Assembly: GCA_905178155.1 (NCBI GenBank)
Contig: CAJINV010000002.1
Coordinates: 7,594,743 to 7,658,742 of the forward strand
DNA from: Amoebophrya sp. A120
Lineage: Eukaryota; Protista; Dinoflagellata
Length of the DNA stretch: 64,000 bases
Reading direction: 5' to 3'
Shown here: one piece after another, positions 43,318-64,000 of the stretch
How positions within the stretch are numbered: position 1 is the first letter of the stretch
How the letters are laid out: the number at the start of each line of letters is the position of its first letter
Notes under the pieces: model-generated
Database searches by the model: none
The model's input: only the letters and a program-made list of their open reading frames with translations
What the model was told of the DNA's origin: nothing
Program-made: the position numbers and the translations under genes

Positions 43318-44222
43318 CGTCGGCGAGGCTATGTTGTAGTTTGGTGAAACCTTTACACAGACCTGATAGTCAACTCAGCACAACAGAGGAAAAATTAAAG
43401 AAGAGGCAGCTGGTCTAGTTGTACATCAAATCCTTTCAAAATCGGGAACGGAAGTTTTGAAGGGATCGCCGCGCTGCGGAAATCTTTCATGCATGCTACA
43501 TCACTCCCTGTCGTCTTCGAGTCGTCAACATGGGGTGCAACCTTTTCCTTTCCGAGCCGATTTTTTCTGCGTGTGACGCGAACAACAAACTACTTCGTGC
43601 TTTCCTTTGAAGCAGAACTCGCGAGTAAAGAAAAAGCTGTTTGTTGAACCGTTACTGTTCATAGGCGGAAAAACACATAAAATTGTATGCAAAAACTTCA
43701 ACTTGTTCTTGCGACAGCATTATGTCTTGGCGTGGTCCTTCTAAAAACGGGTGCGTGTGCCAAAGGAATTGTACAATATGTTGCACCTGCGCTTTCGACT
43801 ATGTATCTCCATCAGTGAAAAAAAACCGACAGAAGTTTGAGTTCTTTTCTGAAACGATTCATACAACGAACGGACGGAGGGCACTAGGCAACGCCCCATT
43901 CAAAAAAATACAGTAGTACCGCACTTAGATCAAAACTCTTCAAAAGTTTCTTACAGATCACACAGCCACAGCAGCCACGACGGGCCCGCGTGCTTGTGAT
44001 CAACTTGAACTTTCTCGTATGACTGACTAAGCTAACTTACCATAAATTGTGATTGTAGCTGCACGTTGTTATTCACTTTAGCTTCTTATTGACGCCAGGC
44101 TTTTAGTTCTAGAATAAAAGTTCCCTCCGGAATTCATGTATTAGTTGTGCACCCACCGACCCGCCGCCAGCGTGCTGGTGCTCCGGTTCAGCAGCTAAAA
44201 CGCGCCACCTGCTTCCGCCGCT

Positions 44223-47200: not shown

Positions 47201-49496
47201 GGACCTTTTATTTATATTTGGTGTTGATATCGACTTTCTGGATTTCAACTCATTGCGTTGCTCTGCAGCGTACTTTTACGACCTCGCCCGCTAGCTCTCT
47301 ATCTCGTTTCGGTTTCCTGGATCATGAAACAAGGATTAACGAGGAGGAGGAGGACGGAGGTGGGCGGAATCGGAAAATAAACTCTTATCTTGTCGTTGAA
47401 ATAGATCTTCACGTTTCCTAGCTTCTAATATAAAAGCCTTACCACCGCGCAGCTTGACGATGCACTTGATTTTTTTCGCCTGTCGGTCGTTTATGATCGT
47501 GTGCGCAGAGGACAACACGTACACGTTGTCCGGATCGCAGGGGCAGTAGACCAGCGTCCCCACGCCGATGAGTTCGGTCTGCGCGTGGTTCGTCAACAGG
47601 GCCACCGCGGCGAAGGCCCGGTTGATCTCGCGCGCCTTCATCCTTACCGGCAACTGGTTCCGCGGATCCACGAAACTCCGGTCGTGCCAGGGCGTTTCGT
47701 TGATGCCCTGCACCCCCTCCAATTTCCGCCGCGTTTTCTTCTTGAGCCGACCGCTATGGCGTTCTCAAACGTTACATTATCAACTGTTACGATGAATTTC
47801 TCATGCAAAAGTGCCTGCAGCCGGCAGATGATCGAGCTGCTGCGCATGACAAACTTCGGAAGAGCTAAACAGCATCTAAATCTTCTGCGCCAAACTTGTA
47901 ATGCAAAAGGCGCAATCTTCCTCCTGTCACTTTTGCCATTCTTGCATCACAAATTCATGTAACAGTTGAGAATGTAACGTCTGAGAACCCCATAACCGTA
48001 CTGGTCAAACTCGGGCTCCGCGTCCGCCTGCTCCATATCCTGTGCAAAAGAAGTATCGCACTCGTAGTCGTACTAATTGCAGTATATGCATGACAAATCT
48101 TCTTTTCAAAGTAAAACAGCATGACAAATTCCATTTCTCAACATGCTGAGCAAATTTGTAATGCAATTTGTACTAGTACGATACTTTAACTTTTGCAGTT
48201 CATACTCCATCTCCGCCTGCCATTGCGCCATGCGCTTCATCTCCTCCTTCTTCGCCGCTTTCTCTGCCTCTTCCTGCTCAATCGCGAACTTCGAACCGAG
48301 AATCTCGGTGTTGTTCTTCGCATCCAGGTCGTAGTCCTTTTTCCAGTTTAACGACTTGTTGACTTCCGGCTCTTTTTCAACGTTTTCGTCCTCGTCGCTG
48401 CTGAACTCCGGCTTCGGTTTATTTGGCTTGAATCCGAATCCGTCGTCGACTTCTTTGTGACGTCGTGCATTTTCGTCTTCTTCGCCGGACGAGGTACCGA
48501 TTTGGAACAGTTGCTGGATTTGCGCGCCCAAAACGTGCTCGGCAAAGTCGTTGCCGCTCGTGTTCGAAACGTTCGCGTTGAACACGTTGTCCACGGCGTT
48601 TTCGTACACATTTGTCAACTATCAAATGCAAAAATGTCTGGGTCTGGCAGAGTCATGCTGTTTTTGCATGACACAGAAGGTCTGGCATGAGAGCTCTAGC
48701 ATCATAGGTTTCGAGAAGCTTCCGCAATGCCGAACCCGCATGAGAAGTCCCCTACTTTGGTGACAGAAAGTGGGCAGCTTTTGCTGCCCATGCATGAGAG
48801 ACTTTTCTGCGTTTCAAAATACGCATCAGAAGTTCGGATCCTTCCAGACCCAGACACTTTTGCATTTGATATCAACCTGGCGATCTCCTGGTCTGCGTCC
48901 TGATCGAGGGTGGAGAGCGGCCCCATCATCTCCACGGCCTTTTCGAACTGGCCCTGGAGGACATTGTCAATGAACTCATCATCCACCTGGTACATCCTCT
49001 TCTTCGCCTCATCGATCGCCGCCTGCGTCTCAGCGGACACAATCACCTTCTCGCGCGGCTTGTGCTTGTCAACGTCGGCGTCGTCGTTTTTCGGGTCATT
49101 ACTTTCATCCTTAGCCGCCGCGGCAGTGCCGAGCGCGGCTCCTGGGGTGGCGTTCCCTTCGCCGTCGCCCTCTGGTGCTGGCGCACCATTGGGGTCTTCT
49201 GCATTCGGGAGCGGAGCTTGTTCTGCGTCTCCTGGTGAAGACTCTGGCGCAGTTTTTTCCCCTTCTGCTGCACCACCCTCATCCGGGGCGGCTTCGTTTG
49301 TCGCCGCATCTGCGTTTTGCGTTTCTGGTGCAGCAGTTGTAGCACCACCGCCAAGAACTCCTGCATCATCTGGTGGTGATGCTGCTTGATCAGCACCAAC
49401 ATCATCCGCAGCTGGGACAGCTGCTGGCGCTGCTGATGCATCTTCCGCTTTTTCTTCGTCACCGCCCTCGTCAGCGCCAGCTTGCTCCTCCGACAT
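44223..49496 (-). CDS. Multi-exon acidic protein with trypsin-like (PA clan) domain and C-terminal ankyrin-like repeats
   Basis: About 11 exons join in frame after removing seven introners and three other introns. Motifs VLSSAHTI, FSGQPIF, VLCGVH; ankyrin-like RTLLHLIA and QDRNGWNPLMAHVAA. Confidence 0.7.
45456..45564. mobile_element. Introner, family E (109 bp, almost wholly palindromic)
   Basis: tatccaggaaaaaacacccatccccatcca / tggatggggatgggtgttttttcctggata; perfect TSD cggtg; excision restores AYTTDSVRY. Confidence 0.93.
46307..46468. mobile_element. Introner, family B; predicted canonical GT-AG intron 46306-46469
   Basis: tatcctgtgcaaaagtatcgtac...gtacgatgcttttgcaatgcata; flanks caagc/caagt. 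Confidence 0.9.
46514..46779. mobile_element. Introner, family A2
   Basis: tatcaagtgcaaaaatgtctgggtct...agacccagacatttttacatttgata; flanks tccca/tcccg; homologous to 3403. Confidence 0.92.
46930..47060. mobile_element. Introner, family B
   Basis: tatgaactgcaaaagtatcgta...tacgatgcttttgcacagaata; perfect TSD cggaa. Confidence 0.92.
47755..47994. mobile_element. Introner, family C; possible canonical GT-AG intron 47754-48001
   Basis: Homologous to 31191; flanks accgc/accgt. Confidence 0.9.
48036..48204. mobile_element. Introner, family B
   Basis: tatcctgtgcaaaag...cttttgcagttcata; perfect TSD ctcca. Confidence 0.92.
48620..48871. mobile_element. Introner, family A2-like, in reverse orientation relative to 3403 and 46514
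   Basis: Family A TIRs; perfect TSD tcaac; right half matches the reverse complement of the left half of 3403/46514. Confidence 0.92.
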
Positions 49497-49916
49497 GGTG
49501 GCAACAACTAGTACAAGTACTTTCTAGTTCTACCAAGAAAAAGATACGAGCATAATTGGTCGTAAAGAAAAGAGTGAGCAGATCACTTCATGATGATCTC
49601 TTGATTACACAAAACAATACGTTTTTGTCATGCTCAACAACAAGGCACGCTAACACATGATTTTTAGTAAAAGTGTTTCTAAATGCGATTTATCAAATTA
49701 CACAGTATGCTGGTGGTCGTGATTCCTACGCGAACAACAAGCAGAATAAGACACCGGCCCGCGCAAAGGACTCTCAGTTTATTTCATTTTGTAGTTTTTC
49801 AATTTCCGGTGAAATTGGAAAAAACAATGCGCCAAACATATTCAGCTATGCTGTTCTTCCTATCCTGATCTGATGTTGATCATGTTCATCGCAAATATCT
49901 TGAACATCACCTTCAA

Positions 49917-51572
49917 TCATGCCTCCGCCCCCACAAAGAGTTGCTTTTGGTTCTGCTGCGACAAAGCCGCGTAGTCTATGGGGACGTCTTTCTCCGCTTC
50001 CGGTACGAACACGGCGACCGCGACGAATATCAGCAGGTACGCGAAGACGAAGGTGATGCAACTCGTCCACCCCGTGGAGGAAAGTTGCGTGTACAGCGTG
50101 TCGATTTTCGACACCGGGTCTTGGACCCACGTAAAGAAGAGCGGGTGCTTGGACGGAAGCCCGAACTCGTTGCTCCACTGCTCGACGCCCAGCCGGTAAA
50201 AGGCGCGGTCCTCGTCTTTTATCAGCCGGAGACCTCAACAGGAACAGATTTACGTAGTTGCATTATGAGTTTCTCTCTACTAACTAGTGTTGGTTCTGAC
50301 GGTATTACATATACACACACGACTTTGATCGAAAACACACACTTTGATTGCATGAAATCGAAATCCACGACGAACAAATCGAATTCCAACCTGCCTTCGC
50401 CACATTGTTGTCCACCTCGCCGCATTTGAATTGATCGCCGCTCGGCTGACAGCAGTCCGTCCCTATTGCCCAGAAGTCGAAGGTGCCGCTATTTGGCAAG
50501 ACTAACCTCGTGGCCTCGCCCTGTAAAGGCTGCCCGACTATTGGAGCCACGCAATACGTCTTCGTATCTCGGAATGCGCGCGCGGATTCCGTTGCTACCT
50601 GACAGAAGTAAGTGACACTTGCGGTCATGAACTGAAGTGCTAAGGCCACTTCACGGGCATGGCCATCTTCTTCATGCTCCACCTTGTCATTTCAATTTCA
50701 GACTCACATGGACATTTCAATCCTGTTTTTTCAGGACCTGTAATCAACCTGTCGTAGTCAATCACCGAAGAAAATTCCAAAAACAAGCTGCAACATGTCA
50801 CTTACCCGCGTTCCCTGTTTAAAGTACAGCACGCCAGCGTCCATGTAGCTTTGTCCTTGCGCGTTTGCAGGGTCGATCAGAACGTAATCCGCCAAATCCT
50901 GGTAGGTGTACCAGTCTTTTGCGTACAGCGAATACAGCGACCTCCCAACCGCGTAACCCCCGATCAACCCCGCGGTCATATCAAATGCAAAAATGTCTGG
51001 GTCTGGAAGAATTCATGTTTGTCATGCTTGTCTGGCGTGACTCGTAAATCTGTCATGCACGTTACCCAAGAGCTCCGTTTTTCTGTGATGCAGAAGCGCA
51101 GTTTGTCATGCAGAATAGGCAACACCTAGGAGCTTAGAAACTTGTCATGCTGAGCCAGCATCTGTAGCCTCATCATGAGACGCCACCCAGCATCACAAGT
51201 TTCCAGACCCAGACATTTTTACATTTGGTAGGTCAGGCCGAGCGACAGCACCGCGTGCCATTTCACGTTGAAGAGCCGGTTTCTGCGCCATTTGTACCCG
51301 ACGAAGGAGAGGTGCCAGAGGTAGAAAAAGACGAACCAAAAGAGGATCACATCGGCGACATGCGGGAGTTCGTGGTAGAGTCGGAAGGCGAGGAGGTAGA
51401 CACACGCGCAGAACACGATTGGCGGCAGAATAAAAACGACCAGAAGTGTCCCGTTGTCGACGGAAAGCTTAAAGAGTGATTTAGGTGGTGGTGGGGAGGG
51501 AGGTTGGGAGGCGCCGGGGGGTGCGGCGGTGGCGCTGTTACCTACAACTCCTGGGGCGGCGCCGTACAACAT
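49917..51572 (-). CDS. Multi-pass membrane protein with Cys-containing lumenal domain (about 4 exons)
   Basis: Three N-terminal TM segments, YCVAPI...DFWAIGTDCC...FKCG region and one C-terminal TM. In frame after removal of introner 50979. Confidence 0.8.
50979..51230. mobile_element. Introner, family A1
   Basis: Near-identical to 4880; perfect TSD ggtca; excision restores LGLTAGLIG. Confidence 0.95.
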
Positions 51573-53381
51573 GGTAGTGGTGAAGGTGTTGCTGAGGTTG
51601 ACAACGCGCTCTGCTAAGAGAAAGTCAAAGTTAGAGCTGAGGTGACATCAACACACTCAGTAGAGGTCGTGCCTCCATAATCAAGCAAGAAGTGCCCCCG
51701 CCCCACCAGCTTCAATTTGTGTCACGCTCCTTCTCATCCTCGAAAGCTCTCGACTGCTCATCGAGGTTGCGCCCTCAGACAGCATGCAGAGAGAATGCTG
51801 CTTGCAGAAGCGCAACGGTCACTCCCTATGGTGTCACATGAAGAACGACGCTTGCATAGTACTCGGCCGACCCCTATAATCGGCTGCTTCAATATCAATA
51901 GGAATGCGCTTCAACTTCTTGCACTTCGTCCTTGGTCGTCTTGCCTAGCTATTACCATCTTGCTTCTGTCCGCTCCACCGTCCGTCCAAAGAGCCGTCTG
52001 CGCCCTGCGACCGGTCACGCTCTGGCTCTCCAGAACAATGAGTCTTGTGGAAATGCACGACCAGAACCAGCTGAAGGGCTCTCATTCAAATTTTCTTACT
52101 GCGCCCTGCTGTGAGCAACAATTGGAAGATGATCTGTCTGGACTGGAACCCGGGCGGCGGGTCACCGGGGTGAAGTCGGGGCCCCTATTTCGCTGGCCAC
52201 CCAATTATTAGCTACGACGCCGCGCCCGCCCGCGTGCCCCCCTGCGGAGGGGCGCCACGGCAGCCGGGCCGGCACCGAAAGGGGCGCGCGCGACTGACAG
52301 GCGCCGGCCCAGGCACGCGCCAAGCCGCTGCGTGCGGACAGGGGGGCTCGGCGCGCCTCGGCACCCGGCGCCACGCCGTCGAAAGATAGTTAGATGGGAG
52401 GCGCCCGGCAGACACTCACAACCAGTGGCGGCCACATTGGCAGAACACGCCCGGCGCCCCACCGGCGCTGCCTGGGCGTCGCCCAATCGCACGGAAACAA
52501 AACCGGCGCGCCGGGCACGGCCGACTCCCTTGGGTAGGCCACCACACACAGACAGAGAACGGGCCGCGGGGCCAAAGCCCACCGCCAAACACTGCGAGGC
52601 ATTCGCATACCGCTGGCCGGTCTCCTTGTGCTCCGTCCGCGGGGGCCCAGTTCTGAAGCAGGTCGCTGGGTGGTCGTTTCTTGAGCCGGCCCGTGCCGGT
52701 CGGCCGTGAGCATCGCCAGGGGCGGGCTTGCGCCCGCGTCTAGGTCTACGCGAAGCTGCAGCCAGGCGCCCCGGCCGCCTTGGCGTCATGGCGGTGCATG
52801 CGCGCCGCTCGTCCTCGCGGCCCGTGAGTTCGGGCGCCGCAATCTGCGCAAAACCGTGTCAGAGTCAGCTCGACGGCCATGAATGCGCGAAGCCAAGAAG
52901 TCGCTTCATCATTTTCATTTTTGTCGATCGCAAAAAACTAGCAGACATGAGAGGAGATGGTCAGTATTCCATATAGTGAGACACAGAAGCAAGCAACGTT
53001 TTTCGCTCGGAGCGGGCGGTTGTTCTCTCCCGTACTGCTATGCGTCGCTCAACTTTGTTGAATTGGAAACGATAGCCTCTGACGACAAATGAAAAAGTTG
53101 TAAGTTTGTAAAGCACTTCGCATTAACAGAGCACTCTGCACTCCCTAAAATCAAAAGCACCTTTTCAAAATACCCGCAACGAAAAAATTGAGGAAGTCGA
53201 ACAGAAAAAATTCCAGATCGGCAACAGCGACGGTCTGAAGCATTGCTGTTGAAACCGCAACTATACACATAAACCGTGAAAATTTGCATATCATACATGG
53301 TGGAGCAATGTTCCTAGCTGATTTTTTACTCTGAGACACAGAGACCCAGCGACTCTGTCACATCATCAAATTCAAATCGTC

Positions 53382-56300
53382 TTAAGAATCGTCCGCATTG
53401 GCCTTTATTTCCTCCTGAACAGCATCCAGCTCCTGTGGCGTCGTGAGCTGTGCGGTGACATGCTCCAGGAAAAAATCAGGGAACGGCACAACATCGTCCT
53501 CCATCGACGAAGATGATCGACAGGCATTCAAGTACTCTTCCTCCTGTATGATCACAACCTCGTCCCACTTCAACCTCTTCGCGAGCAACAGCTGTGCGAG
53601 CCGCTTGCCGTTGAGAGAGTAGAGCGACGCGTCGACGTCGTGCGCCTCTGGCGTTGTCTGGGCAGGATTTCTTCCAACACCACCTTGTTCAGCTGCTCCG
53701 GACAGTCCAGGTGTGGCCCACACAGGCTGAGGCACCGAACACGGCGGCAGCTTCTCTCGTTCGCTGACACAGAACACCAGGAAATGTTGCCCGTCTTGCG
53801 GTTCTGGTGTAGTGTCCGAGGCTTCCGGTGACGCTTCTGCACGATCATTCGTCACCGACGTGCTCCTGTCAACACCTCTCCTTATCCGCTTTTGCAACTC
53901 CAGAATGTTCACGGCAACAGCGCCAACTGTGGGCAGGTAGGTGGTGTTGCACCGCAGAGTTGATGATATTTGCCGCATGATTTCACTGGTCAAGGGAGAC
54001 GGCGGTCCTTGCAATGCAGAGTAAGATGGAGATGAACCCCCGGGTTTTTGTTCTGGATGCAACAGGTCAACAATTTCCTCGCTTTCATCCTGCAACAGAG
54101 AATAATTCTCTGAATCCCCACGATTGTGGCACTTGGACTTCTCGAAATCCGCTGGTCGTGTATGGTCACTTGATTGAAAATGGTCTTCATGATGGAGCGA
54201 CGATGATGCGTCGAGTGTGGAGCCGAAGCTGCTGAAGCTGCTACCTCGACTCCGATCTTCCTCGGGATGGTGATACAGCGAAGCTCTGAACTGCTCGAAA
54301 AACGCCCTCGATACCCGGCACTGCGCGAGGAGAAACGCAAATTTTCTTCTCGTTTCTGCACCCCAACCGGATACGCGGGTCCGCAATTGTGCAGTGACGG
54401 GCGACGAAGAGGCAGGTAATTCATCTTCCGCGTCAAAAACTTCCTGCAATAGTTCTTGCCCTGCGTGTTTTTCTTTCATCTCGTCTGGTGCTGGTGGCAC
54501 TCCGTCTTTGTCTGCTGCATCTTTTAAGTCGTCGCGATCAGAAGCGTCCGCATCCCTTTCAAAATCAGGCACACATCCAAGCACGATATCCTCCAGATCG
54601 GTGCGTGAGAAAGGGTGCAAACCGAGATCGACGACAAAGTCGAAGTATCTCCGCAGTTCCTCCTCCCGCTGCTCGTTGCAGCTCAGCAAGCGCAAAAGCA
54701 CAGTTCTCGCTTTCGCTTGCAGTGCGGTCTTCATGAGGCGGAAGAACTTTACCCCTGATGTTCCGCTGTTAGTCTCAATTTGTCCCGGTGTTGACGGAGA
54801 AGTTCTTGTGTGTACGGAAGCACGACCACGTGTCGCGTGCTCCTGCCGTCGCTGTGCTAGTAGACTAGCCAAATGCCACCACCACACGAGATCGTCGTCT
54901 TGACTGCTGGAAGTTGGGCTAATGGCCGACGCTCCTGCGAGAGAAGGATCGTCGGCGCTGCCGGTAGAAGTTCCGCCTCCGACCTTTGTGTAGTCGTGAT
55001 TTGATGTTGACTTTACTTCAGGTGCTGGACCAATGCTGCGGAGCTTCACAACTTGCGCCAACAACTGCCAAAGAAGCGTGTTGACAATTTCGTCGCTTCT
55101 GACGCTGATGTTCGTGTGCTTTTCTCGTGTGTCCCAATTTTGATGTTCATCTTGCTCTGAAGACTCCGAAAGTAAGTGCTCAACCAACCGGACGCAATTT
55201 AGGGCGCGGAATTCCCGCGCGCGGTACTGCAGCTCGTACCAGAAGCGTCGCCAGAACCTCGCGGAGAAGGGAAGGTTTTTCTCTGAAATGCCGATCCTCA
55301 CCATATCCGGCGGGGCGAGCTCGAAAAGACGGGTTACCAGGTGCCGTTCGAACCTCTGCATACCCTCTGCCGTTTCCAGCAGGGAGAGAGTGGTGGAAGA
55401 TGCGCTCGCTGTAGAAGACCTCTTTGCTCTTGAAGATGAAGACATGCTATTGGTCGCTTCAGGATTAAGACGAGACGCCGCGCTGTTCGCTTCTACTGTT
55501 ACAACGTGCTGTGTGGCTACAGGTCTTCCGAAGTTCCTTGTGCAAAGCAGCAGAACCAAATCCGAGCCGCGAAACTTCGACAGATTCTTCTCACACTGGC
55601 GCCACAAGGCTTGCACTATCGTTTTGTGGGGCACATGATCTACTTCGTCGTGGTGTGGCTCTTGACTTAGCGTCTGTGCTAGATCTTGCCCCTCTTCCTC
55701 GATGTCCTCACGCCTTACGTTCATTTTCTCACCGTTCCGTGTAGAGAACTGACCGCTCGCCGTAGTCGCGGCCAAATTCTGGTACACACAGAAGCTGTGC
55801 AGGAGCATGGAGACGGTTTGCGGATCATTCAGCGTCTCGATCCGCTCCCCTGCCAGGCAGCTAGCAACCCGCTCGAAACACAAGTCCAGCAGCGCAGGTG
55901 TGCAAATCTGCCTCGCTGTCGTGCGCTTAACGGACGATGTGGTGACATTTTTCCCGACGTCTGCTGCAGAAGCGCTCGAATTACCAGCTACATGCCGTTG
56001 TTGCTGCCTTACCAAAACGCTGCAGAGCAGTGCCAAATCCTTCGCGTGAGTCTTGGTATTGCATCGTCGCAGGATGGTGGTCTCGATCAATTTTTGCGTC
56101 CAAAAGGAAAGTTGTGAAACGCACATGGTAGTTGAAGGATGATTTTCAACAGATGAATCGTGACGACGTTCTTGATCTGCTTCATCTGTCGAAAGTCGTA
56201 AAACCTGTGACACGACATGTAGCTCCATCGGCAGTAATTTTGTGACCGCGTTGAGCAGAATGGCCACGTCCGAAATGCGGAAGGTGTGGAGTTTGCTACC

Positions 56301-56867
56301 GGAAACCATGTAGAAGACAAAGTCCTCGGCCCGTGTTGGGTTCGTAGAAGTTGAGCTTGCAGCAATACTAAAGGCACTGCGGCTACTATCCTTGTTGGCA
56401 CAAGTCTCGTTGGTGGACGAAATTTGTTCATGTAGATAGTCGAGCACATGATTACTCGTAGTCGTGTCATTATTTGAAGAGTCTGCGCACCTGTCGCCCC
56501 CCATTGTGCTCGGTTCTGCCCCACCTGTTCCCTGGTCGCATGCCAGTTCTAGCAGGGATTTTCGCATGGTTCCCGTTTGCACCCGCTTCTGCAAAAACTT
56601 GGGCCGTACCTTCCCGAGCAAGTGGCAGAGACTGGCAATGTCCCCCGGCTCGAAATCTTCCTTCAACAGACTGCAGCGGTACAGGTACGCTTGCCAAATT
56701 TCGTCCGGCATCTCCTTGGCGTGGAGGATCTGCTCGCTCGTTTTCGTCTTGCGAAGCAGCGCCGCCCGGAGCTCTGGCATCTCCATCTTGTGAATCTGCC
56801 CGATGGTCGGAAGCCGCAATCTGCGGCATTTCCGCAATAGAGCCTGGTTCATCTGCGACGCTGACAT
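53382..56867 (-). CDS. ~1160-aa helical-repeat protein with putative C-terminal RAP-like domain
   Basis: Single long ORF; repeats such as FEPGDIASLCHLLGK, FRISDVAILLNAVTK and DPQTVSMLLHSF; C-terminal LNGKRLAQLLLAKRLKWDEVVIIQEEEY. Confidence 0.6.
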   Translation of the reverse strand: MSASQMNQALLRKCRRLRLPTIGQIHKMEMPELRAALLRKTKTSEQILHAKEMPDEIWQAYLYRCSLLKEDFEPGDIASLCHLLGKVRPKFLQKRVQTGTMRKSLLELACDQGTGGAEPSTMGGDRCADSSNNDTTTSNHVLDYLHEQISSTNETCANKDSSRSAFSIAASSTSTNPTRAEDFVFYMVSGSKLHTFRISDVAILLNAVTKLLPMELHVVSQVLRLSTDEADQERRHDSSVENHPSTTMCVSQLSFWTQKLIETTILRRCNTKTHAKDLALLCSVLVRQQQRHVAGNSSASAADVGKNVTTSSVKRTTARQICTPALLDLCFERVASCLAGERIETLNDPQTVSMLLHSFCVYQNLAATTASGQFSTRNGEKMNVRREDIEEEGQDLAQTLSQEPHHDEVDHVPHKTIVQALWRQCEKNLSKFRGSDLVLLLCTRNFGRPVATQHVVTVEANSAASRLNPEATNSMSSSSRAKRSSTASASSTTLSLLETAEGMQRFERHLVTRLFELAPPDMVRIGISEKNLPFSARFWRRFWYELQYRAREFRALNCVRLVEHLLSESSEQDEHQNWDTREKHTNISVRSDEIVNTLLWQLLAQVVKLRSIGPAPEVKSTSNHDYTKVGGGTSTGSADDPSLAGASAISPTSSSQDDDLVWWWHLASLLAQRRQEHATRGRASVHTRTSPSTPGQIETNSGTSGVKFFRLMKTALQAKARTVLLRLLSCNEQREEELRRYFDFVVDLGLHPFSRTDLEDIVLGCVPDFERDADASDRDDLKDAADKDGVPPAPDEMKEKHAGQELLQEVFDAEDELPASSSPVTAQLRTRVSGWGAETRRKFAFLLAQCRVSRAFFEQFRASLYHHPEEDRSRGSSFSSFGSTLDASSSLHHEDHFQSSDHTRPADFEKSKCHNRGDSENYSLLQDESEEIVDLLHPEQKPGGSSPSYSALQGPPSPLTSEIMRQISSTLRCNTTYLPTVGAVAVNILELQKRIRRGVDRSTSVTNDRAEASPEASDTTPEPQDGQHFLVFCVSEREKLPPCSVPQPVWATPGLSGAAEQGGVGRNPAQTTPEAHDVDASLYSLNGKRLAQLLLAKRLKWDEVVIIQEEEYLNACRSSSSMEDDVVPFPDFFLEHVTAQLTTPQELDAVQEEIKANADDS

Positions 56868-58061
56868 TTTGATACAAGTTTTCACATTTTTGAACTTCGA
56901 GCAAGATGAAGAGCTTCACGATACTGAAAATTTAGCAACTGCCGCTGCCACGAGGACCGACGAAACATTGTTTGTTTTGAAGGTAGTTGAACGACGAGAC
57001 AATTTTCACCAAGAACAGCAATCCCAAGCAAAATTCATGCAATACGCAGAAGGGGACCAGCAAGGCATCACCACACTGTAGGAACCATAAACAAATCTCG
57101 AGATGTTGATGACTAACCACTAAAATAAGTGTGATGCGCATAACCAAGTTCAAAAAGAGCAGCTTTGGCAACCTAGGTGCTGGATCCATCAACTTCAAGT
57201 AAGATTTTAGAACAGCAGCACCTGGATCTTCCGCACCTTGGAGTACCAATAATCGCACGACGTGATGATCTCTACTAGCGAGATGAAAAGCTGCCTCCAT
57301 ACTGCTCCATCATTGCATCATGAACGGATATGGAAAATCAAGGGCAATTTGCATCGCTCTAAAAACGCTGATCTAGCACTGAGCAGGAAAAGATAAAACG
57401 AAAGGTGTTCACAGAAACGAAAGACGACAGAGAAGCGAAGGGTACGACAAGGAAAAAACTAGACCCGAAGGAGTTGAAAGGCTGGCCGCATTCACTGACG
57501 ATGCTGCGAGGCTACCCAAAAGCACGAAGAAAGTCGCACTGGTGGTAGTCATTGACTCTCGATTTTCTGATTCTGAAACTTGGTGTACAATTTTCTTCGT
57601 GCACGTTCATTCCTGTTGTAGTTGTACTACCAGGTCGTCACCAACAGTAAATGAAGAAAGTCGAAACTTTCGCAACATTTTTGGAATACAGGTTATTGCA
57701 CAGACAGATTTTAAAAACACATCGAACGCTAGTAATGTACGCTCCTACTTCTCTTCCTAACTTCAATATCATTGCTTCTGTAGCACCAACAACGAGACTT
57801 TAACTTTGTCAACGCCAATTTTTTTGAAACGTAAGATACAGGCTAATTTCATGATCTGCATCCCTACCACGGGGGCGAGGCAAATCTTCGTTGTGTGAAA
57901 GTGAAAGGTCATTTTTAGTTGCCAACTTGTGAAACATATAATTTTAAACGTAAAGAGAAACCAGTCGATCAAAACCTACAACATTAGTCTCTTGTCGTAG
58001 TCGATAATGCTCGCATTCACAAAAATTGCTCCTTTCTTCCTCCATCTTCCCTCTCCTTTCC

Positions 58062-59275
58062 TCACTTGACGTCCCTCGCCACGGACCCGAAGTCCGGTGC
58101 GCCGCTTTGGCTCGCCGGCTCGACGGTCGTCGTCGTGCCTCGAGCAGCACTGACGACCGAATTGGGTGGATTTGCTATCATGGACTCCGAGGGTCTCGTG
58201 ATCTTGCCGGGTCCCCGCAAACTCGGCGTCGCCCGGTCCACCAAGGAGCCAGGGGCGGGGGCCATCGTTGCCGTCGAGAACGCGTTTGCCATGGTAACCG
58301 AATGGCTCGTAATCTTCCCGGCATCGCCTGGTACCCGCACACTCGGCGTCGGTCGCTCCATCAGGGAGACCGGGGCCTGCGTCATCGTTGAAAAGGAGCT
58401 CCCGGTCGCCCCGCCGTCGGATTCCCGTACTACCGATCCTTCGGCCTGCTGCTGCGACGCCATCGCAGCCGAGCCGCGGGTCGTTTCGGCGCCGGCAAAC
58501 GGCTGCTTTTCGCCCGCGACCCCGATGGAGGTCGGCTCCGGCACGCCCGCCTGGTCCGTATCGTACAAGTCTCCGTCCACGTCACCCTCGTCCGGCTGTG
58601 TCACCTCGGACGCGATCTATGCAGAGCAAAAATAACACCGTAACTCGTTCTTTCCATATTAATTATATTCATCAAATCCTTGTTCTACTGCACTGCTGCA
58701 GCCGCGATGTTGGGGCAACAGTGACGACTGAGTCTGACGCGCAGACACATGGGGAGGCTATCACTCAATTACTACCTAGTACAGTTTTATTTTTGCATGC
58801 CCAAATTTATAGTCGACATGAGTTGCCATGCTCGACAACAAGGCGGTCAAAATGGGAAGACGAACTAAGATGTTAATGTTTTCGCACAGGATACAATCTT
58901 CTGCCTGCTCAAGACGCAAAACAGCAGCCCGGCGATACACAGTACGATCACCCCGCCAATCACCGGGCAGAACACCAGACAACAGCACATGTTCCAGAAG
59001 AGCTTTTGCTTCTTCGTTGTCTGCGTGTCCACATTCTGGGAGATCGGCTCCGCATGGTGCTCGTTTTTGTTTTTGTCTATCACGACAACTCCGCCCCCGC
59101 GCAGACCGCTGTTCGCGCTCCCGTACTGCATAGTGTAGCCGTATTGGTCCGTGATCGGGTAGCCACTAGTGGGTGAGACGTGGCGCGCAGCCTGTGCGAC
59201 GGCAGCCGCGCCGCCCAGATGCCCGTGGGTTGCCTCGTATTTTACCCATTCGATCGGAGCTGGGGTTTTGATCAT
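58062..59275 (-). CDS. Two-exon hypothetical membrane protein
   Basis: ATG 59275; Cys-rich TM segment CCCLVFCPVIGGVIVLCIAGLLFCVL; exon 2 is in frame after intron 58617-58894. Confidence 0.7.
58618..58893. mobile_element. Decayed family-B-like introner; predicted canonical GT-AG intron 58617-58894
   Basis: tatgcagagcaaaaataac...gttttcgcacaggata; flanks cgatc/caatc. Confidence 0.8.
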
Positions 59276-61589
59276 TTACATTTATGGCTATAACAAAGTG
59301 CGGTCGTGTCTCCTCTTCACCCGAACGAATCGAATACCGACTACTACTTAGCTTGCCGCAGCAGGCATTTCGCTTTTGGTTATTTTCTCATAGTCACAAA
59401 ACACGAACAGGCGGCAAGCTAGCTACAACTATCCCCGCAGTCGGCACCAGCCAACGAGGACCTCCACCTCCAGGAGGACCATGGCCATGCACTTTCAACA
59501 TAATTCATAAAAGATAAACATATTTTGTACTTTCTTCCTTCTTGATTTCGCCCGACTTGCCGCGCCAGACAAAGCGACAACAAGGAAAACCGCTGGTGCC
59601 TTCCACGCGCTGTCCCCACGACTTGGCTCCGTGGACCGGGCAGTTCTGGAAGTTCGTGATGCTCACGGTTGGGCACATGTGCACCCCAGACCAATGACAC
59701 CACTCCGGATTGTGCTCGCATTTCCCGTGAAAAGCGCCATCTGTATGTTGTATCATTTTTGTTTTTCGACGAGTTAATGGTCCTAGTTTGCTGCCTGCAT
59801 CAATCATCAACACCGCAAAAGAATCAAAATTTACTTACATGGCAGTGGCGCCTGCGAGATGGCGTTTTCGTTTATGTCCAAATCGCAATCGAAACACTTC
59901 CCCGTTACGCCGATGGAAATCCCATGCAAAATTGCGGCCAACTGAAGCAGGTGGTGGGAAGAGCGTGAGCTATTAATGGGGGCGGATGAAAATGCAGCTT
60001 TCCGAACCGGTGATCCGCCTCGGAGAGGATCTGGTCTCCGTAGAAGAGATACTGCGCCACACATCTTCTTGGCGGCCGATTCGCTGACAAGGTACGACAG
60101 TTGGCGGTTGAAAAGCTCCAGGGTGATCGTGTAGTTCTTGTTTTAGCGGTTTTTTGCTTTCCAGTATGCGATTCACTATTTTTCCGTCGCGATCGTAATC
60201 GTCTGGTAGTTGTCGCACCGTCACCTCAGTGCTTTACAACAAGGGCCTGCAGCTGCAATACGCCGCGGGACACTAGTTACATCGGAACGCCGTAACGTCA
60301 TTTGTTGTCTAGTTCGTGAGGAAACGTCCTGATTTTCGCGATACATAGATCAGGGGGGAACTCGTAACTTTTACTTATTTCTGCTGGCTGGTTTGTTCAG
60401 ACTGAAGTTTCAACGATCACAACATTCGTCGGTGATGCTACAAGCACAATCTGCACCCAGTGTGGTTGCTAACGAAGCACGCTCCCAGACAAGGGAGGTC
60501 CACCCACAACTGAATTACGATTACGCCCAAAAGTCATCTTCGATCTCCAAAACGACTGAGAAATCCGACATCGATTGCAAAGCGATGGAAATAAATGGCG
60601 ATCTTCACGATAACGAAAATTAGGTTCATCAAGTTGATTTTCACGAGGCGACACGAAACGACTTTGTAACGGCCCTGTCCCTGCAAAAACACCTGCTGGA
60701 CGAAGATAGAAATAGAACGCAGAATCTTCATCTTCTACTTCTACCTAAATGTACTGACTTACTTACGTTTCTCGCTCAAGAACTTGCCGATACAGATGAC
60801 AAGAACGAGGAGCGAGATCAGGAGGAGAACCTACTGTGAAGGCCCTAAAATATCCACCTTTTCGCCCATCTTTTCAAATTTTGGCCAGTTGATTGCTCGG
60901 CGCCCTCGCCGATTATCGGGTAGCGCCTCTTCGATGGCGGCTGCGCGTCCGCCTTTGCAAACGCGTCAAGCCGGGCTGCCCTATTTCTGCCCCGAGGCCC
61001 GGGGCAGAAACGCAAGCCAAACACCCCAAAGAGAAAAGCCACCCAAACGAGCCTCCCAATCATATGAGGCCATGGGCCCTGAGCGCGCCTCTGCTTGCGC
61101 AGGTAAGGAAAGGCACCCGGCAATAGCGACAAACGCGGAAAATGCCCCCGGCCAATTTACCCTCGACAAAGCGCAGCCGAGCGAAAGGCTGCGCCTCCCC
61201 TCTTATCTGCCCCGGCCTGGCTTGGGCCTGTTTCGGAAACAACGCCCGCCGCATCTTCTGCGCAGCTTCCCAAACCCCTAGCGGTTCAGGACTTGGCGCG
61301 CGCCCAGTAAAATGAGGACAGGCGGCGTAGGCTGGGAAACCCGGAAAAGCCAACTGGAATGGGAGGTCTAGGTAGAATAGGGAGGCGCGCACAGACCACA
61401 GCTGTCCGAGAAGCCAAAGGGGTCGAGAGATCTGGGAGACCTGAGGAGCGAGCAACCCCTGACGAGGTGGCTCGTGCTTCATGGCGCAACCTTTTCAAAT
61501 GTGGACACGGCTGAAGCGGGGAAATATACCTCGGGGCGCATTTTTTCAAATCTGAAAACCAACAGGCGAAAAAGTTGCTGTGCTCTCCT

Positions 61590-62310
61590 GTGGTTCTTGA
61601 GATTTGAAAAGATGCCCTTTCAGCATTTTTTCAAATCTGAAGCGCGTGGCCTTTGGCCTGCAAAATTTGAAAAGATGCTGAAGGAGCATCTTTTCCATAA
61701 CGAAGCCACAAGAGACCCGAGCAGTTTACTCTTCTGTGGTTTCCAGGATTTGAAAAGATGCTGAAGGAACATCTTTTCGAATTTCAAAAGGCGCAAAACA
61801 GGAGGGTCGCCTGCTCTTCTGTGCTTTTCAAACTTTGAAAAGATGCTGAAGGAGCATCTTTTCAATTTTTGAAGCCGCAGAAGACGGGGTCGGCTTACGC
61901 GTCTGTGGTTTTCAAAATTTGCAAAGATGCTAAAGGAGCATCTTTTCAATCTTCGAAGCCGCAGAAGAGCCGATCCGTTTTCTGTCCTGAGGTTGCCAAG
62001 ATTCGAAAAGATGCTGAAGGAGCATCTTTTCAAATTTTACATGCCGCAGACGAGGAGAGCAGCTGGCTGTGCTGTGGTTTTCAGGATTTGAAAAGATGCA
62101 GAAGGACCATCTTTTCAAATTTGAGAAACCACGCAAAGGGAGGTCAGCTCAGTCTTCTGTGGCTTCCAAAATTTGAAAAGATACTACCAGCGCATCTTTT
62201 CAAATTTCGACAGCCGCGGAAAGGGTGAGCAGCCTACTCTTCTGCGTGGCTTTCAAAATTCGCAAACTTGCTGAGGGGGCATCTTCGCAATCTTCGGAGC
62301 CACAAAAGAG
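61590..62310. repeat. Hairpin array 1: ~9 palindromes tttgaaaagatgc-N7-gcatcttttcaaa at ~85-bp period
   Basis: Cores start near 61603, 61666, 61749, 61834, 61918, 62002, 62087, 62172 and 62258. Confidence 0.9.
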
Positions 62311-62522
62311 GCAAGCAAACAAATGTCGCCAGAGGCACGGCTTTGCTTACCATCTGGCGACCCGCCAGCTGGAGCGCAAGCCAAAGCCTTGGACTTTCGT
62401 CACCAATTCTCTGTCTAGGCGCACCAAAGAGGTTCCCAAACAGGTTCATCAAAATCCACCATACCATGCGGATTAGGTTAAGTTAATAGCCTCTTGGGAG
62501 ACCTCATCAAAGGGGTTGTCAA

Positions 62523-63065
62523 AAAGGTTGTCAAATTTTGAAAAGATGCTGAAGGAAACATCTTTTCAAAATTTGACAACCTCAACAAAGCAAGTGCTTG
62601 CGTTTTTGAGGTTGTCAAATTTTGAAAAGATGTCTCCTTCAGCATCTTTTCAAAATTTGGAGAGTGAGCAGCCACCTATCAATCAAAATTTGAAAAGATG
62701 CAGAAAGAGCATCTTTTCAAAATTTGGTATTTGCGCTGTTCGGGTTGTCAAATTTTGAAAAGATGTCTCCTTCAACATCTTTTCAAAATTTGGAAAGTGA
62801 GCAGCCACTTATCAAAATTTGAAAAGATGCAGAAAGAGCATCTTTTCAAAATTTGATATTTGCGTTGTTCGGGTTGTCAAATTTTGAAAAGATGCTTCCT
62901 TCAGCATCTTTTCAAAATTTGGAGAGTGAGCAGCCACCTAGCAAAATTTGAAAAGATGCAGAGAGAGCATCTTTTCACAATTTGGTACTTGGGCTGTTCG
63001 GGTTGTCAAATTTTGAAAAGATGTTTCCTTAGGCATCTTTTCAAAATTTGGAGAGTGAGCAGCCA
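62523..63065. repeat. Hairpin array 2: 8 palindromes of the same core, mostly as ~128-bp dimeric units
   Basis: Cores start near 62537, 62621, 62689, 62755, 62818, 62883, 62947 and 63012; two alternating spacer types. Confidence 0.92.
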
Positions 63066-63357
63066 GGTATGACAAGAACGAGGAGCGAGATCAGGAGGAG
63101 AACCTACTGTGCAAACGAGGATCCAAATGTTACACAAGACAGCAGGAATCGGATTCTGATCAGAATCAGTATCAGATCGGCTTCACATACAAGCCACGGC
63201 GTTGTCTGTGCACAGCTGCAACAGGTGATGCCCTCACCACCTGAGACATCACCTCTCTGGTGTCTGATGTCACAAATAGTCCTGTTCCTGTAAGTATGTT
63301 GTTTCTTACAAGAGTCCGCGCTGGCTTTGGTTCATTCTTGCTCCTTCAAATGATCAT

Positions 63358-64000
63358 TCACGGCGAGCTGTCCCACCTGCAGCAGTTGTTTCGATTTGCG
63401 TCCCACGATCGCATGTTCAGACACGCCACGCTGTCTGTGAAGGTCGGACACTTTCCGGCTGGGTCGCGAAAGCTCGAACACTTGTGATCGTCCTTGCAGG
63501 TCAGCGGGCGGTCGGGCGTGGGGTGGATGGTGGGTGGTGCGGCTTGTGTGGTCGCAGTGGGTGCAGCTGGTTGCTGTGGTGGGGGAGGAGGTACAGCTGG
63601 AGGAACAGCTTCGGGCGCTGGTTGGCCTCCGGCCGGAGGCGTCGTTGTAGCAGCGACAGAGGCCTGCGGCGGCTGTGCAATCTGAGGAGCGCCGGGGGGC
63701 GCTGCTGGTGTTTGTTGGGCGACGGGCGGGGGTGCTCCAACAGCTGGTGATGAAACCGCGGGTGCTGGTTGCGCTTGCGTTGCCGCATTACTAGCATCAT
63801 CTGGTCCCGCAGCGCCGGGAGGTAGTGCAGGCAACAGTGGTGGAACCACTCCACTTGATGGCGCGCCTGCGTTTGCAGAGCCGTGATCATCGGCTGAGGT
63901 TCCAGCTGTTCCCACAATGCCGTCCTTGGCGGCGGTGGCTGCCGCACCGAGTACCGCGCCGATGTCTTGCAGCACGCTACCGGCTGATTGCTGTGGTGGT
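63358..64000 (-). CDS. Partial Pro/Ala-rich protein with small Cys-rich module; 5' end outside the window
   Basis: Open frame from the window end; CKDDHKC...CPTFTDSVAC...NCC. It may splice onward to Cys-rich exon-like segments at ~59500-60230. Confidence 0.6.
   Translation of the reverse strand, partial: PPQQSAGSVLQDIGAVLGAAATAAKDGIVGTAGTSADDHGSANAGAPSSGVVPPLLPALPPGAAGPDDASNAATQAQPAPAVSSPAVGAPPPVAQQTPAAPPGAPQIAQPPQASVAATTTPPAGGQPAPEAVPPAVPPPPPQQPAAPTATTQAAPPTIHPTPDRPLTCKDDHKCSSFRDPAGKCPTFTDSVACLNMRSWDANRNNCCRWDSSP

Follow-up and report, generated by a model that had tools for sequence, protein, structure and literature searches.

What is the 2.2-kb stretch of non-coding DNA that lies between two genes of Amoebophrya sp. 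A120, a marine parasite, bounded by a perfect direct repeat and filled with hairpins, and by what route did it arrive there? We address this question within the window, by which we mean the whole 64,000-nt stretch of DNA that was analysed. The insert is a copy of a mobile element, unusual yet precedented as mobile DNA.

Results

The 43-mer ATGACAAG...CTACTGTG occurs in two exact copies in the window, at 60796-60838 and 63069-63111, separated by 2,273 bp from start to start, and is the longest two-copy exact repeat with a spacing of up to 15 kb anywhere in the window. No third copy is present in the window at up to three mismatches, and 100 shuffles gave no match. Between the copies lies a non-coding element of 2,230 bp (60839..63068), for which the minus strand is the favoured, candidate orientation; features given below without a strand have none assigned. 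The exact repeat search recovers both the 43-bp repeat and the 2230-bp insert of the preliminary description. The left target duplication (60796..60838) is purine-rich in 28 of its first 34 nucleotides, and its last two, TG, are also common to other copies of the element, so that the true target duplication measures 41-43 bp. The right duplication (63069..63111) begins with AT, the expected continuation of the adjoining array, which amounts to a 2-nt overlap at this junction. The element runs from AAGGCC... on the left to ...CCAGGT on the right, inserted between G and C of the target, and its ends read ...TTTTAGGGCCTT(CA) in the minus orientation and ...GAGCAGCCAGGT in the plus orientation.

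The interior is composed of the parts previously described, namely a GC-rich head, a first hairpin array, a linker of about 200 bp and a second array, all of which were found. The family terminus (TGAAGGCCC..., 60837..60900), at which other copies are entered from unrelated flanks, carries the subterminal half-palindrome CATCTTTTCAAA at 60867-60878. A CCCTAAA at 60843-60849, presumably the reverse complement of a TTTAGGG-type telomere unit, is a single copy and was taken as chance. The unique head (60839..61480, 642 bp, minus strand) has a GC content of 0.60 and is followed at 61505..61575 by a second, internal occurrence of the left-terminal module (AAATAT..ACC..GCATTTTTTCAAAT) that directly precedes array 1, with a score of 23 against a null maximum of 21 (0 of 500 shuffles equalled it). 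Array 1 (about 61591..62311) consists of nine units of ~85 bp, the last of them degenerate (period 85, 7.7 copies, 72% matches, GC 0.45); each unit combines a conserved palindrome, with 13-bp arms and a purine-rich loop of 7-8 nt (TGAAGGA), and a spacer that is variable yet weakly self-pairing. A unique linker of 209 bp (62312..62520) leads to array 2 (62521..63068), which contains eight palindromes in alternating orientation. Its period of 129 reflects two alternating units of ~65 bp (3.5 copies, 92% matches, GC 0.36), and palindromes 1 and 2 together form a perfect-type palindrome with 63-bp arms. Array 2 is cut off in mid-unit at an apparently copy-specific end, 16 bp past the final hairpin stem.

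The hairpins share the core TTTGAAAAGATGC, which matches the window 33 times at up to one mismatch against 0.20 expected; 32 of these matches fall inside the insert. The arms pair into eight complete hairpins in each array, 16 altogether, and one degenerate hairpin at 62259, which is the count of about 17 given earlier. Both arrays fold far better as single strands than their shuffles (z = -10.9, 0 of 20 as good, and z = -22.5, 0 of 100), and the head shows no excess over its shuffles (z = -0.9). Within the arrays, the 13-bp arms are far more conserved than loops and spacers, and it is identity of sequence, not compensatory change, that maintains the pairing; a sequence-specific site thus fits better than a selected fold. 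It is plausible from this pattern of conservation that the palindromes serve as binding sites of a dimeric protein. In the minus orientation no special 3' stem-loop was found (z = -0.17), and the test is uninformative as to orientation. Searches of the literature for the core returned only unrelated work on chickpea and breast cancer.

Contig depth places the insert in a larger family. In the DNA contig set X1 the interior reaches depths of 169-946 compared with 43 for the flank, and in X3 up to 140 compared with 5-7; the interior is therefore present in many copies in this organism's DNA contigs. The X1 depth, a rough measure, declines from the head (328-946) to the linker (about 267), as expected if 5'-truncated copies in the minus orientation exist. 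Unlike flanks enter the element at 60837 in two contigs of X1 and one of X4, and, judged from these contig sequences, at least two other copies and probably a third share this left base; because base and element are shared and the flanks unrelated, the 43-mer is not element sequence. Among the contigs, the right end occurs in no other. The last 26 nt (63043-63068) are covered by no X1, X3 or X4 contig, the bin depths there equalling that of the flank contig alone, and a variable 5' end is thus a statement about absence from contigs, which lose rare variants. Some apparent ends inside the arrays (62042, 62792 and 62827; 62489 and 62750) were considered as termini and set aside as unreliable, since alignments break where conserved palindromes meet variable spacers.

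The present copy differs from the majority contigs at 22 of 1,257 positions (1.75%). The perfect duplication was rejected as proof of a recent insertion, as two identical 43-mers have a probability of 0.22-0.47 even if the 1.75% divergence arose in place. Three A120 gene fragments, from contigs of 1.05, 13.2 and 3.96 Mb, align with the head at 84-94% amino-acid identity, and the family is dispersed over at least four contigs or loci; within the window, blastn of the insert gives only chance matches (E of 0.12 or more). Sequence comparison thus shows that the insert is a copy of a dispersed, multi-copy, non-coding repeat family that is also annotated in Amoebophrya sp. A120. The unclassified non-autonomous element with target duplication that had been suggested gains support from the multi-copy interior, the shared left base and the three A120 copies; the long duplication was observed in one copy.

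The same gene fragments are annotated as three A120 'unnamed protein products' on three contigs, and the earlier judgement that there is no credible ORF needs qualifying accordingly: a 140-codon ORF exists and is annotated as an A120 protein, and a coding signature is absent. This minus-strand ORF extends to about 213 codons in another copy. The pseudo-ORF spans 61482 to 60845 (minus strand) with a frameshift near 61093 in the present copy; its frame is not preserved between copies and its variants fall 9:8:9 by codon position. Among 1.84 billion representatives it has no relatives beyond its own cluster, the atlas model has a pLDDT of 0.38, and neither the ORFs of the insert nor the 33 ORFs scanned in the window have a match in Pfam. 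Given the drift of frame, the lack of coding constraint and of relatives and the low pLDDT, a real protein was rejected; the ORF is spurious.

For the route of insertion, we tentatively prefer a non-autonomous element inserted in the minus orientation through target-primed reverse transcription (TPRT), with machinery on loan from a non-LTR retrotransposon whose genes lie elsewhere. In that case the defined left end would be the 3' end of the element (...GGGCCTTCA), and a partner retrotransposon would resemble ...GGTGGATATTTTAGGGCCTTCA in its 3' ~50 nt. A plus-strand nick after ...CTACTGTG would prime cDNA synthesis on the element RNA with a 2-nt overlap (TG/CA), the second strand would be cut 41-43 nt from the first nick, and the junction of the 5' end would fall within array 2, with 2 nt overlapping, so that this copy would have a truncated 5' end of its own; fill-in of the stagger would yield the 43-bp duplication. 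The palindrome arrays would represent 5' repeats of the 'monomer' type, and a dimeric protein may recognise the half-site TTTGAAAAGATGC, whether a transcription-driving factor of the host or the protein that mobilises the element.

The target duplication (TSD) expected of a TPRT element is present in the copy examined, at a perfect 43 bp of which 41-43 derive from the target. In TPRT, two nicks at variable distance are described as giving long and variable TSDs (PMC8557442), and TSDs are reported for all CRE and R4 LINEs and some R2-clade LINEs; a title cited in the same source calls the R9 TSD 'exceptionally long' (PMC3636483). Autonomous non-LTR and LTR retroelements are reported from Amoebophrya genomes, where the account of putative transposases places them in A25 only, not in A120 (PMC7789003). 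Against TPRT, a poly(A), A-rich or simple-repeat tail is absent at both ends, as is the special 3' stem-loop looked for in the minus orientation. No reverse transcriptase or endonuclease domain occurs among the 33 window ORFs. Also against it, of the 58 A120 introner families in one dataset the 40 covered have TSD calls of 2-6 bp, including two filed as non-LTR (PMC12130899 Dataset S2), and conserved half-site palindromes in arrays are a more usual mark of proteins that bind DNA (transposases, Rep) than of recognition by a reverse transcriptase.

Several established classes fail to account for the insert. Comparison of the termini agrees with the earlier finding of no terminal inverted repeat (TIR), and TIR transposons, MITEs and introners are further disfavoured by a duplication of 43 bp rather than 2-10 bp (3-5 nt in introners). 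An LTR or solo LTR would fit the initial TG but not the final ...GGT, nor a TSD of 43 rather than 4-6 bp. No SINE head derived from tRNA, 5S or 7SL with a pol III promoter was detected (ARAGORN predicted 0 genes and Rfam gave nothing at the gathering score, with only generic miRNA-hairpin matches below threshold), and no tRNA-like part or ribozyme was found in the insert. The hallmarks of Penelope-like elements (an ORF for reverse transcriptase and GIY-YIG, pseudo-LTRs, a hammerhead ribozyme) are lacking, as are those of Helitrons and Helentrons (5'-TC...CTRR-3' and an A^T or T^T site), and a 43-bp duplication is present. As for Replitrons, whose autonomous copies carry a Rep gene (HUH/HUQ, GYxxK), no repeat is common to the first 30 and the last 30 nt, and the window ORFs scanned contain no Rep domain; the only sequence to recur is an arm of the subterminal palindrome, 30 nt in from the left end and 18-35 nt in from the right, and a non-autonomous Replitron relative is possible. 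An ordinary satellite was rejected, the arrays being embedded in a unit with head, linker, family-wide terminus and flanking duplication.

Two origins of so long a duplication had been put forward, crossover integration of a circle and the staggered break of some retrotransposons. The first, in the form of an attP x attB-type integration, is ruled out: other copies carry unrelated sequence left of 60837, so that no crossover through a shared 43-bp core took place, and the 43-mer is confined to one locus in the window. The second is the one we favour. The suggestion of a viral or episomal origin found no backing: the palindrome pattern has 0 matches in IMG/VR, in JGI metagenome contigs or in GTDB genome contigs, the left-terminal 23-mer has 0 in metagenome contigs and a 27-mer from the head hairpin 0 in IMG/VR, and blastn of the insert against phage records gave no match, these being weak tests for eukaryotic viruses.

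The spacer that holds the insert is transcribed and has a minus-strand gene on either side. The upstream ORF, of which the window holds the 3' end (63358..64000, minus strand; Pro/Ala-rich with a Cys-rich tail), stops 247 nt ahead of the insertion site. RNA contigs delimit the downstream gene (57588..60795, minus strand), with exons at 60395+..59839, 59740..59531, 59259..58894 and 58612..57588 and a first ATG at 60064, about 730 nt past the site. A model in which the 43-mer belonged to a short TM-helix exon with a 22-nt mini-intron was rejected, because 60491-60795 and 63069-64000 are spanned by RNA contigs without splicing and the reading frames put the site between genes. Sequence of the head appears in the RNA sets X4 and X6 at a depth similar to that of the neighbouring genes; the contigs carry no strand, and their presence gives no direction of transcription. 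In raw RNA, run X10 contributed 0 reads to 59800-64000, and X10-X12 contributed 20, 6 and 88 reads to 44001-64000, all of them partial fits and almost all at 90-99% likeness; these runs may lack the organism and are no test of expression.

One rival concerns the state of the locus and is compatible with any mechanism of insertion. It holds that the insert is fixed, that insert-free DNA is a shortcut of the assembly, and that insert-free RNA arises by splicing of the insert together with one 43-mer, as a giant introner using AG|GT within the duplicated target; we regard this as somewhat unlikely. An insert-free path occurs in X1 (DNA) and X4 (RNA), where X4 and X6 are spliced RNA and a 1,576-nt contig of X4 crosses the site without the insert. 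Since the 43-bp repeat exceeds the assembly word, which we take to be 31 bases, every 31-mer of the joined form is also found in the filled form, the joint being scored as 'both = 43'; the insert-free contigs that the search for an empty site turned up in DNA and RNA runs are therefore no proof of an empty allele. A cut shifted by +35 would give a minus-strand GT..AG intron with donor TAG|GTTCTC and acceptor CACAGTAG|, but such a placement is open to every 43-mer in which ACCT occurs, as it does by chance in about 15%, and the donor GTTCTC is unlike the GTAAGT or GTACAA of neighbouring introns. Amoebophrya introners are described as being spliced and as bordered by direct repeats (PMC7789003), and the window has an example of precise removal in its own 252-bp TIR element with a 5-bp repeat, absent from an X6 RNA contig; reported introner repeats, however, are of 3-5 nt and come with inverted repeats that the present element lacks. 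The site is moreover spacer or UTR rather than coding exon, and X1 retains flank-to-head junctions of other copies and none for this locus. The 252-bp element is a MITE at 50979-51230 with 30-bp TIRs; the 257-bp skip over it (50973->51231) had been read as an insertion polymorphism, a reading withdrawn because X6 consists of RNA and, in Amoebophrya, elements of this kind are introners that undergo splicing.

A second rival, which we consider unlikely, is a non-autonomous transposon that moved as DNA in the plus orientation, through a transposase either of the Rep/HUH type (Replitron- or Helitron-like) or of an unknown kind. The left end would be the site of initiation and the right end a 'fuzzy' stop behind one hairpin among many; the palindromes would act as signals for binding or termination, and the long duplication would stem from non-canonical resolution. 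One end is indeed defined and the other apparently copy-specific, the right end lying 16 nt past a hairpin stem in a final 100 nt that fold strongly (z = -7.45), and the arms are conserved above the spacers. Replitron-1 and Replitron-N1 of C. reinhardtii are described with defined left ends, fuzzy right ends and variable TSDs, and hairpins as general in Rep transposons; the same source presents HUH transposons as canonically without TSD, with variable TSDs in C. reinhardtii Replitrons only (PMC10288648). The terminal TGAAGG equals the loop of the array 1 hairpin (GATGC-TGAAGGA-GCATC), with a half-palindrome 30 nt inside, but about 24 nt separate it from the right arm of the hairpin, and a 6-mer match may be chance. 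Short direct terminal repeats, 5'-TC/3'-CTRR ends and an A^T or T^T target are missing, and the window has no Rep, helicase or transposase domain. A120 transposases go unreported in the account of PMC7789003, yet many A120 introners are filed as TIR elements in PMC12130899.

Capture of extrachromosomal repeat DNA, a circle or fragment of the family arrays, during repair of a staggered break with ~43-nt fill-in and no dedicated machinery is very unlikely. The 2-nt overlaps at both junctions (TG left, AT right) are as in end joining, one end lies within a tandem array, and the target, with purines at 28 of 34 positions, may be prone to breakage; a left end shared to the base with two or more further copies at unrelated loci is not what random capture predicts, 43-nt overhangs are unusual as a break product, and the family occupies at least four contigs or loci. 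Misplacement of the insert by the long-read assembler into a truly insert-free locus would agree with the insert-free path in X1 and X4, with several sites (e.g. 60919) that show only the other letter in all four runs, and with the absence of any X1, X3, X4 or X6 contig across either filled-form junction, but is highly improbable, as a repeat misjoin does not make a second perfect and unique 43-mer exactly at the family terminus and contigs are expected to lose such junctions along with rare variants and short low-depth bridges beside high-copy repeats.

Discussion

Human SVA with its VNTR and mouse L1 with its 5' monomers exemplify L1-dependent composite elements and monomer-bearing LINE 5' ends, with TSDs of about 4-20 bp and a poly(A) tail. 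The insert resembles them in being non-coding, multi-copy and dispersed, with a unique 3' part that has tandem arrays upstream, one defined and one apparently variable end and a target duplication; it differs in its missing poly(A), its TSD of 41-43 bp, its palindromic units and its host, a syndinian dinoflagellate. Long duplications through widely staggered TPRT nicks are found in the restriction-like-endonuclease LINEs CRE/SLACS, R4, R8 and R9, which are described as autonomous and specific to spliced-leader genes or rDNA (PMC3636483), whereas the insert occupies a unique spacer, has no ORF and belongs to a family whose other copies have unrelated flanks. Penelope-like elements offer a likeness in their variable TSDs, frequent 5' truncation and tandem or inverted internal structure, and occur in protists (PMC8557442), but the insert has no RT/GIY-YIG ORF, pseudo-LTR or hammerhead ribozyme.

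Chlamydomonas Replitrons and non-canonical Helitrons share with the insert a defined left end, an apparently imprecise right end, hairpins near the ends and variable TSDs, and the group is reported to have abundant non-autonomous derivatives in algae and protists (PMC10288648); unlike Replitrons, the insert has no short direct terminal repeats, RG target or Rep gene in the window, and its TSD is 43 bp. The satellite-carrying non-autonomous Helentrons of oyster are similar in dispersing short satellite-like arrays as cargo (PMC7492417), but Helentrons have no TSD and have characteristic termini that the insert does not match. Closest in host are the introners of Amoebophrya, likewise strain-specific and non-coding, with hairpins, border direct repeats and insert-free RNA (PMC7789003; PMC12130899); some A120 families are flagged 'palindromic' (40 of 58 rows, PMC12130899 Dataset S2). 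As described, introners are mostly 100-800 bp long, with terminal inverted repeats of 8-20+ nt and 2-6-bp repeats, and lie in coding genes (PMC7789003; PMC12130899), whereas the insert measures 2.2 kb, lacks TIRs, is bordered by a repeat of 43 bp and occupies a spacer.

Amoebophrya genomes are reported to hold thousands of mobile introners, whose mode of spreading is described as unresolved, and repeats that are mostly unclassified (PMC7789003; PMC12130899). Against this background, a bolder proposal, which we think doubtful, is that the insert is the first member to be described of a new kind of syndinian element that uses staggered breaks of ~40 bp, carries about 16 palindromic 13-bp half-sites as a landing pad for its mobilising protein and, the duplicated target supplying AG|GT on both sides, is spliced out as a 2.27-kb, TIR-less giant introner harmless wherever it lands. 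The clean signature of a long perfect duplication, a family-wide end and an apparently copy-specific end points to widely staggered nicks, and if the whole family shares it, it would provide a handle on the enzyme by which these parasites' non-coding DNA is moved. The half-site TTTGAAAAGATGC is a concrete candidate target for a sequence-specific DNA- or RNA-binding protein, of value in a lineage whose known regulatory proteins are very few. Should splicing be the source of the insert-free RNA, the introner idea would extend to elements that are ten times as large and lack inverted repeats.

Structure of the insert

The 2,230-bp insert (60839–63068) is bracketed by two identical 43-mers (60796–60838 and 63069–63111), and the preliminary description of these as a two-copy repeat was borne out: the window contains exactly two occurrences of the 43-mer, with no third copy at three or fewer mismatches, and no match arose in 100 shuffles. 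When the whole window was compared, it proved to be the longest exact two-copy repeat with a spacing of up to 15 kb. The insert is composed of a head (60839–61480; 642 bp, GC 0.60), a first palindrome array (~61591–62311; period 85, 7.7 copies, 72% matches), a linker (62312–62520; 209 bp), and a second array (62521–63068; period 129, 3.5 copies, 92% matches) that ends mid-unit at the right border of the insert. The left-terminal module is repeated directly ahead of array 1. The target contains a purine-rich tract (60796–60829; 28 purines among the 34 plus-strand nt), and its GGAG and GAGGAG runs look like the purine-rich hairpin loops of the element, TGAAGGA and AGAAAGA. A lone CCCTAAA lies at 60843–60849, 5 nt within the defined end; this heptamer is the reverse complement of a TTTAGGG-type telomere unit, and because it is present in a single copy it is probably due to chance.

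The palindrome core TTTGAAAAGATGC matches the window 33 times at no more than one mismatch, with 32 of these matches within the insert (expected, 0.2), and its arms pair into 16 complete hairpins and one degenerate one, in keeping with the ~17 described beforehand. Compared with shuffles, both arrays show much stronger single-strand folding (z = −10.9 and −22.5), an excess that is absent from the head (z = −0.9). In an alignment of the 17 hairpins, paired cells amount to 87%, a level reached in 7 of 500 shuffles; the pairing rests on near-invariant arms and covariation is weak, with double changes at five pairs that mostly reflect a single between-array difference. Pairwise identity in array 1 is 0.87–0.88 for the arms, 0.70 for the loop, and 0.59 across 51 columns of spacer (p < 1e-4 by permutation), and the 13-bp half-site is therefore the constrained or homogenised feature. 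Such a pattern would be expected from a sequence-specific binding protein, probably dimeric, which we infer. Unit orientation alternates along array 2, whose units 1 and 2 form a palindrome with 63-bp arms. The terminal TGAAGG of the element is identical to the hairpin loop, a 6-mer match that could have arisen by chance.

A dispersed family with a shared terminus

That the insert is a copy of a mobile element, as proposed earlier, is upheld by its multi-copy interior, a family-wide terminus, and dispersed loci. In one set of DNA contigs (X1), depth is 43 at the flanks vs 169–946 in the interior of the insert, and in a second (X3) it is 5–7 vs up to 140, both by a rough measure; the two sets agree on roughly several to a few dozen copies. 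The majority contigs differ from the window copy at 22 of 1,257 positions. Two X1 contigs and one contig of spliced RNA (set X4) match the element rightwards from 60837 and carry unlike sequence to the left, which identifies 60837/60839 as a family-wide terminus and assigns the 43-mer to the target rather than to the element. A 2-nt overlap is present at each junction: the TG at the left is common to other copies, and the AT at the right corresponds to the expected next bases of array 2. Judged by bin depths, the final 26 nt before the right 43-mer are covered by no X1, X3, or X4 contig. Three A120 fragments, members of the protein cluster matched by the head ORF, lie on contigs of 1.05, 13.2, and 3.96 Mb and are collinear with 61482–60881; together with the other copies, they place the family at no fewer than four loci. 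The match of the head ORF to an A120 protein (see below) makes the host Amoebophrya or a very near relative, which the small shares in one marine-plankton and one estuary metagenome fit; Amoebophrya is a marine syndinian that parasitizes dinoflagellates.

State of the locus

A 31.6-kb X1 DNA contig and a 1,576-nt X4 RNA contig join 60795 to 63069 without a single flank difference. These insert-free contigs look like an empty site but do not prove one, because the 43-bp repeat exceeds the assembly word behind them, which we take to be 31 bases in agreement with the 31-letter rule of contig matching, and every word of the joined form is thus also contained in the filled one. A short bridge of low depth that leads into a high-copy repeat is the type of path that assemblers remove, and filled-form junctions were seen in none of the runs. 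Splicing could also account for the joined form in RNA: GT..AG ends on the transcribed strand result from one placement (cut +35), and Amoebophrya splices out repeat-bordered elements, according to the sections of PMC7789003 consulted, a case in the window itself being the 252-bp TIR element at 50979–51230. Identical 43-mers are expected under in-place ageing with P = 0.22–0.47, so their identity is no proof of recent insertion. The locus may be polymorphic, or the insert may be fixed, with the insert-free forms due either to splicing or to an assembler shortcut. Misassembly that wrongly placed the insert here is unlikely, as it would not duplicate a unique 43-mer perfectly and place the copy precisely at the family terminus.

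Contigs of spliced RNA (X4 and X6) skip minus-strand introns of 98–281 nt, described as GT..AG. From the exons assembled in these sets, the first ATG of the downstream gene is at 60064, and the stop of the upstream ORF is at 63358, which places the insertion site in a ~1-kb transcribed spacer or UTR between two same-strand genes. Placement of the 43-mer within a small TM exon was discarded, the site being outside the coding exons and frames so assembled. On the minus strand of 57588–64000, RNA contigs run unbroken from the 3′ end of the upstream gene through the ~1-kb spacer towards the 5′ part of the next; the genes of a unidirectional cluster could be joined by read-through, or the assembler could have fused UTRs that overlap. 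An X6 contig also skips 281 nt at 58613–58893, with ends that are not GT..AG on either strand (plus: CG..TA) and a 476-codon frame open across the joint; non-canonical introns are described in Amoebophrya, and this is a candidate for one.

Coding capacity and origin

The preliminary description saw neither a credible ORF nor a terminal inverted repeat, and both statements hold. A 140-codon ORF on the minus strand of the head is 91% identical to an A120 'unnamed protein product', and was rejected as a gene: its frame is not kept among related copies (P0086 stops as the window copy does, and P0087 continues in another frame), and the 26 variants between copies fall on the codon positions 9:8:9. 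No relatives beyond its own cluster emerged from a word-indexed search or from an exhaustive phmmer search of 1.84 billion representatives, the PDB gave no match, and its atlas model is unfolded (pTM 0.15, pLDDT 0.38). Terminal inverted repeats, LTRs, and short direct terminal repeats are all absent from the insert ends; the palindrome arm alone recurs, subterminally. The insert contains no tRNA, no hammerhead, and no Rfam family at the gathering score (generic hairpin matches fall below it), and none of its ORFs has a Pfam domain. Searches with the palindrome, terminus, and head hairpin gave 0 matches across IMG/VR, JGI metagenomes, GTDB genomes, and phage records, where eukaryotic viruses are poorly sampled, and thus lend no support to the viral or episomal origin suggested beforehand.

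Mechanism of insertion

Our favoured, still tentative reading is a non-autonomous retroelement inserted in minus orientation through target-primed reverse transcription (TPRT), because a long perfect duplication, a precise family-wide end, and a copy-specific end inside a repeat form the pattern of TPRT and autonomous non-LTR elements are reported in Amoebophrya genomes (PMC7789003, sections consulted). The element would have its 3′ end at 60837/60839 and a truncated 5′ end inside array 2, and the palindrome arrays may, by analogy, take the role of 5′ monomers. Comparable arrays are the 5′ monomers of mouse L1 and the VNTR of SVA. A target-site duplication (TSD) of exceptional length has reportedly been described for R9. 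In the portions of the sources consulted, variable TSDs are attributed to two nicks at variable distance (PMC8557442), and TSDs, very long ones included, are known in CRE, R4, and some R2-clade elements (PMC3636483). Against TPRT, the insert has no tail at either end and no 3′ stem-loop, no partner element was found among the window ORFs (33 scanned with Pfam, none with an RT or endonuclease domain), and the binding-site-like arrays suit DNA-binding enzymes better. Also against it, a TSD is seen at a single copy only.

The main rival, in which a Rep protein or transposase moved a plus-oriented DNA element, is less probable and in our view doubtful. The left end is defined and the right ends are fuzzy in Replitrons of C. 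reinhardtii, which also have hairpins and TSDs of variable length (PMC10288648), but the terminal repeats that define Replitrons are absent from the insert and other Replitron families are without TSDs (PMC10288648). Putative transposases are reported in A25 and not in A120 in the part of PMC7789003 consulted. Capture of repeat DNA during break repair is very improbable, as it leaves the shared terminus unexplained.

Other features of the window

A 252-bp MITE-like element (50979–51230) has 30-bp terminal inverted repeats (93%), a GGTCA 5-bp direct repeat on each side, and four internal GTTTGTCATGC motifs. An X6 RNA contig lacks exactly this element and one repeat (a skip of 257; window 50974–51235), and its copy number is very high (summed depth 541, up to 11 variant contigs). 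Most likely it is a published Amoebophrya introner element, resembling a 252–260-bp, 331-copy family in the consulted rows of PMC12130899 Dataset S2. More copies or termini of the same inverted repeat, TATCAAATGCAAAAATGTCTGGGT / CAGACCCAGACATTTTT.., occur as exact repeats at 48620–48643, 3644–3663, and 5105–5124.

Summed RNA-contig depth is high (94–198) over 46300–48200, with several non-canonical skips; an 'opposite strands' joint at 46449/48071 is matched by 69 raw reads of RNA run X12 with partial fit and 90–95% likeness. A gene that is conserved or repeated, and common to another organism of that run, may lie here. The stretch 24500–25700 (GC 0.59, strong AT skew, frames open in several phases, 20–30-bp exact repeats AAGCCTCGAAGCAGC...) resembles a tandem coding repeat of low complexity, and has a weak, below-threshold Cornifin-like Pfam match. 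Pfam domains in the window ORFs include TSP1 and DUF2921/RING; identity between the RING protein and its closest named relatives is only ~25%. Two minus-strand ORFs (245–1225 and 6318–8462) carry thrombospondin type-1 repeats (TSP1_spondin, TSP_1), adhesin-type domains known in apicomplexan relatives.

Relation to described elements

The sections of PMC7789003 consulted do not name the family, and the 40 of 58 A120 introner rows consulted in PMC12130899 Dataset S2 include no long TSD, all being 2–6 bp. A literature search found the palindrome core in no relevant paper in print. The family may already stand in the supplements of PMC7789003 or in the last 18 A120 rows of that dataset. We class the insert as a non-autonomous mobile element that stands out by its palindrome arrays and the unusual length of its duplication; mobile DNA in this host lineage is poorly understood.
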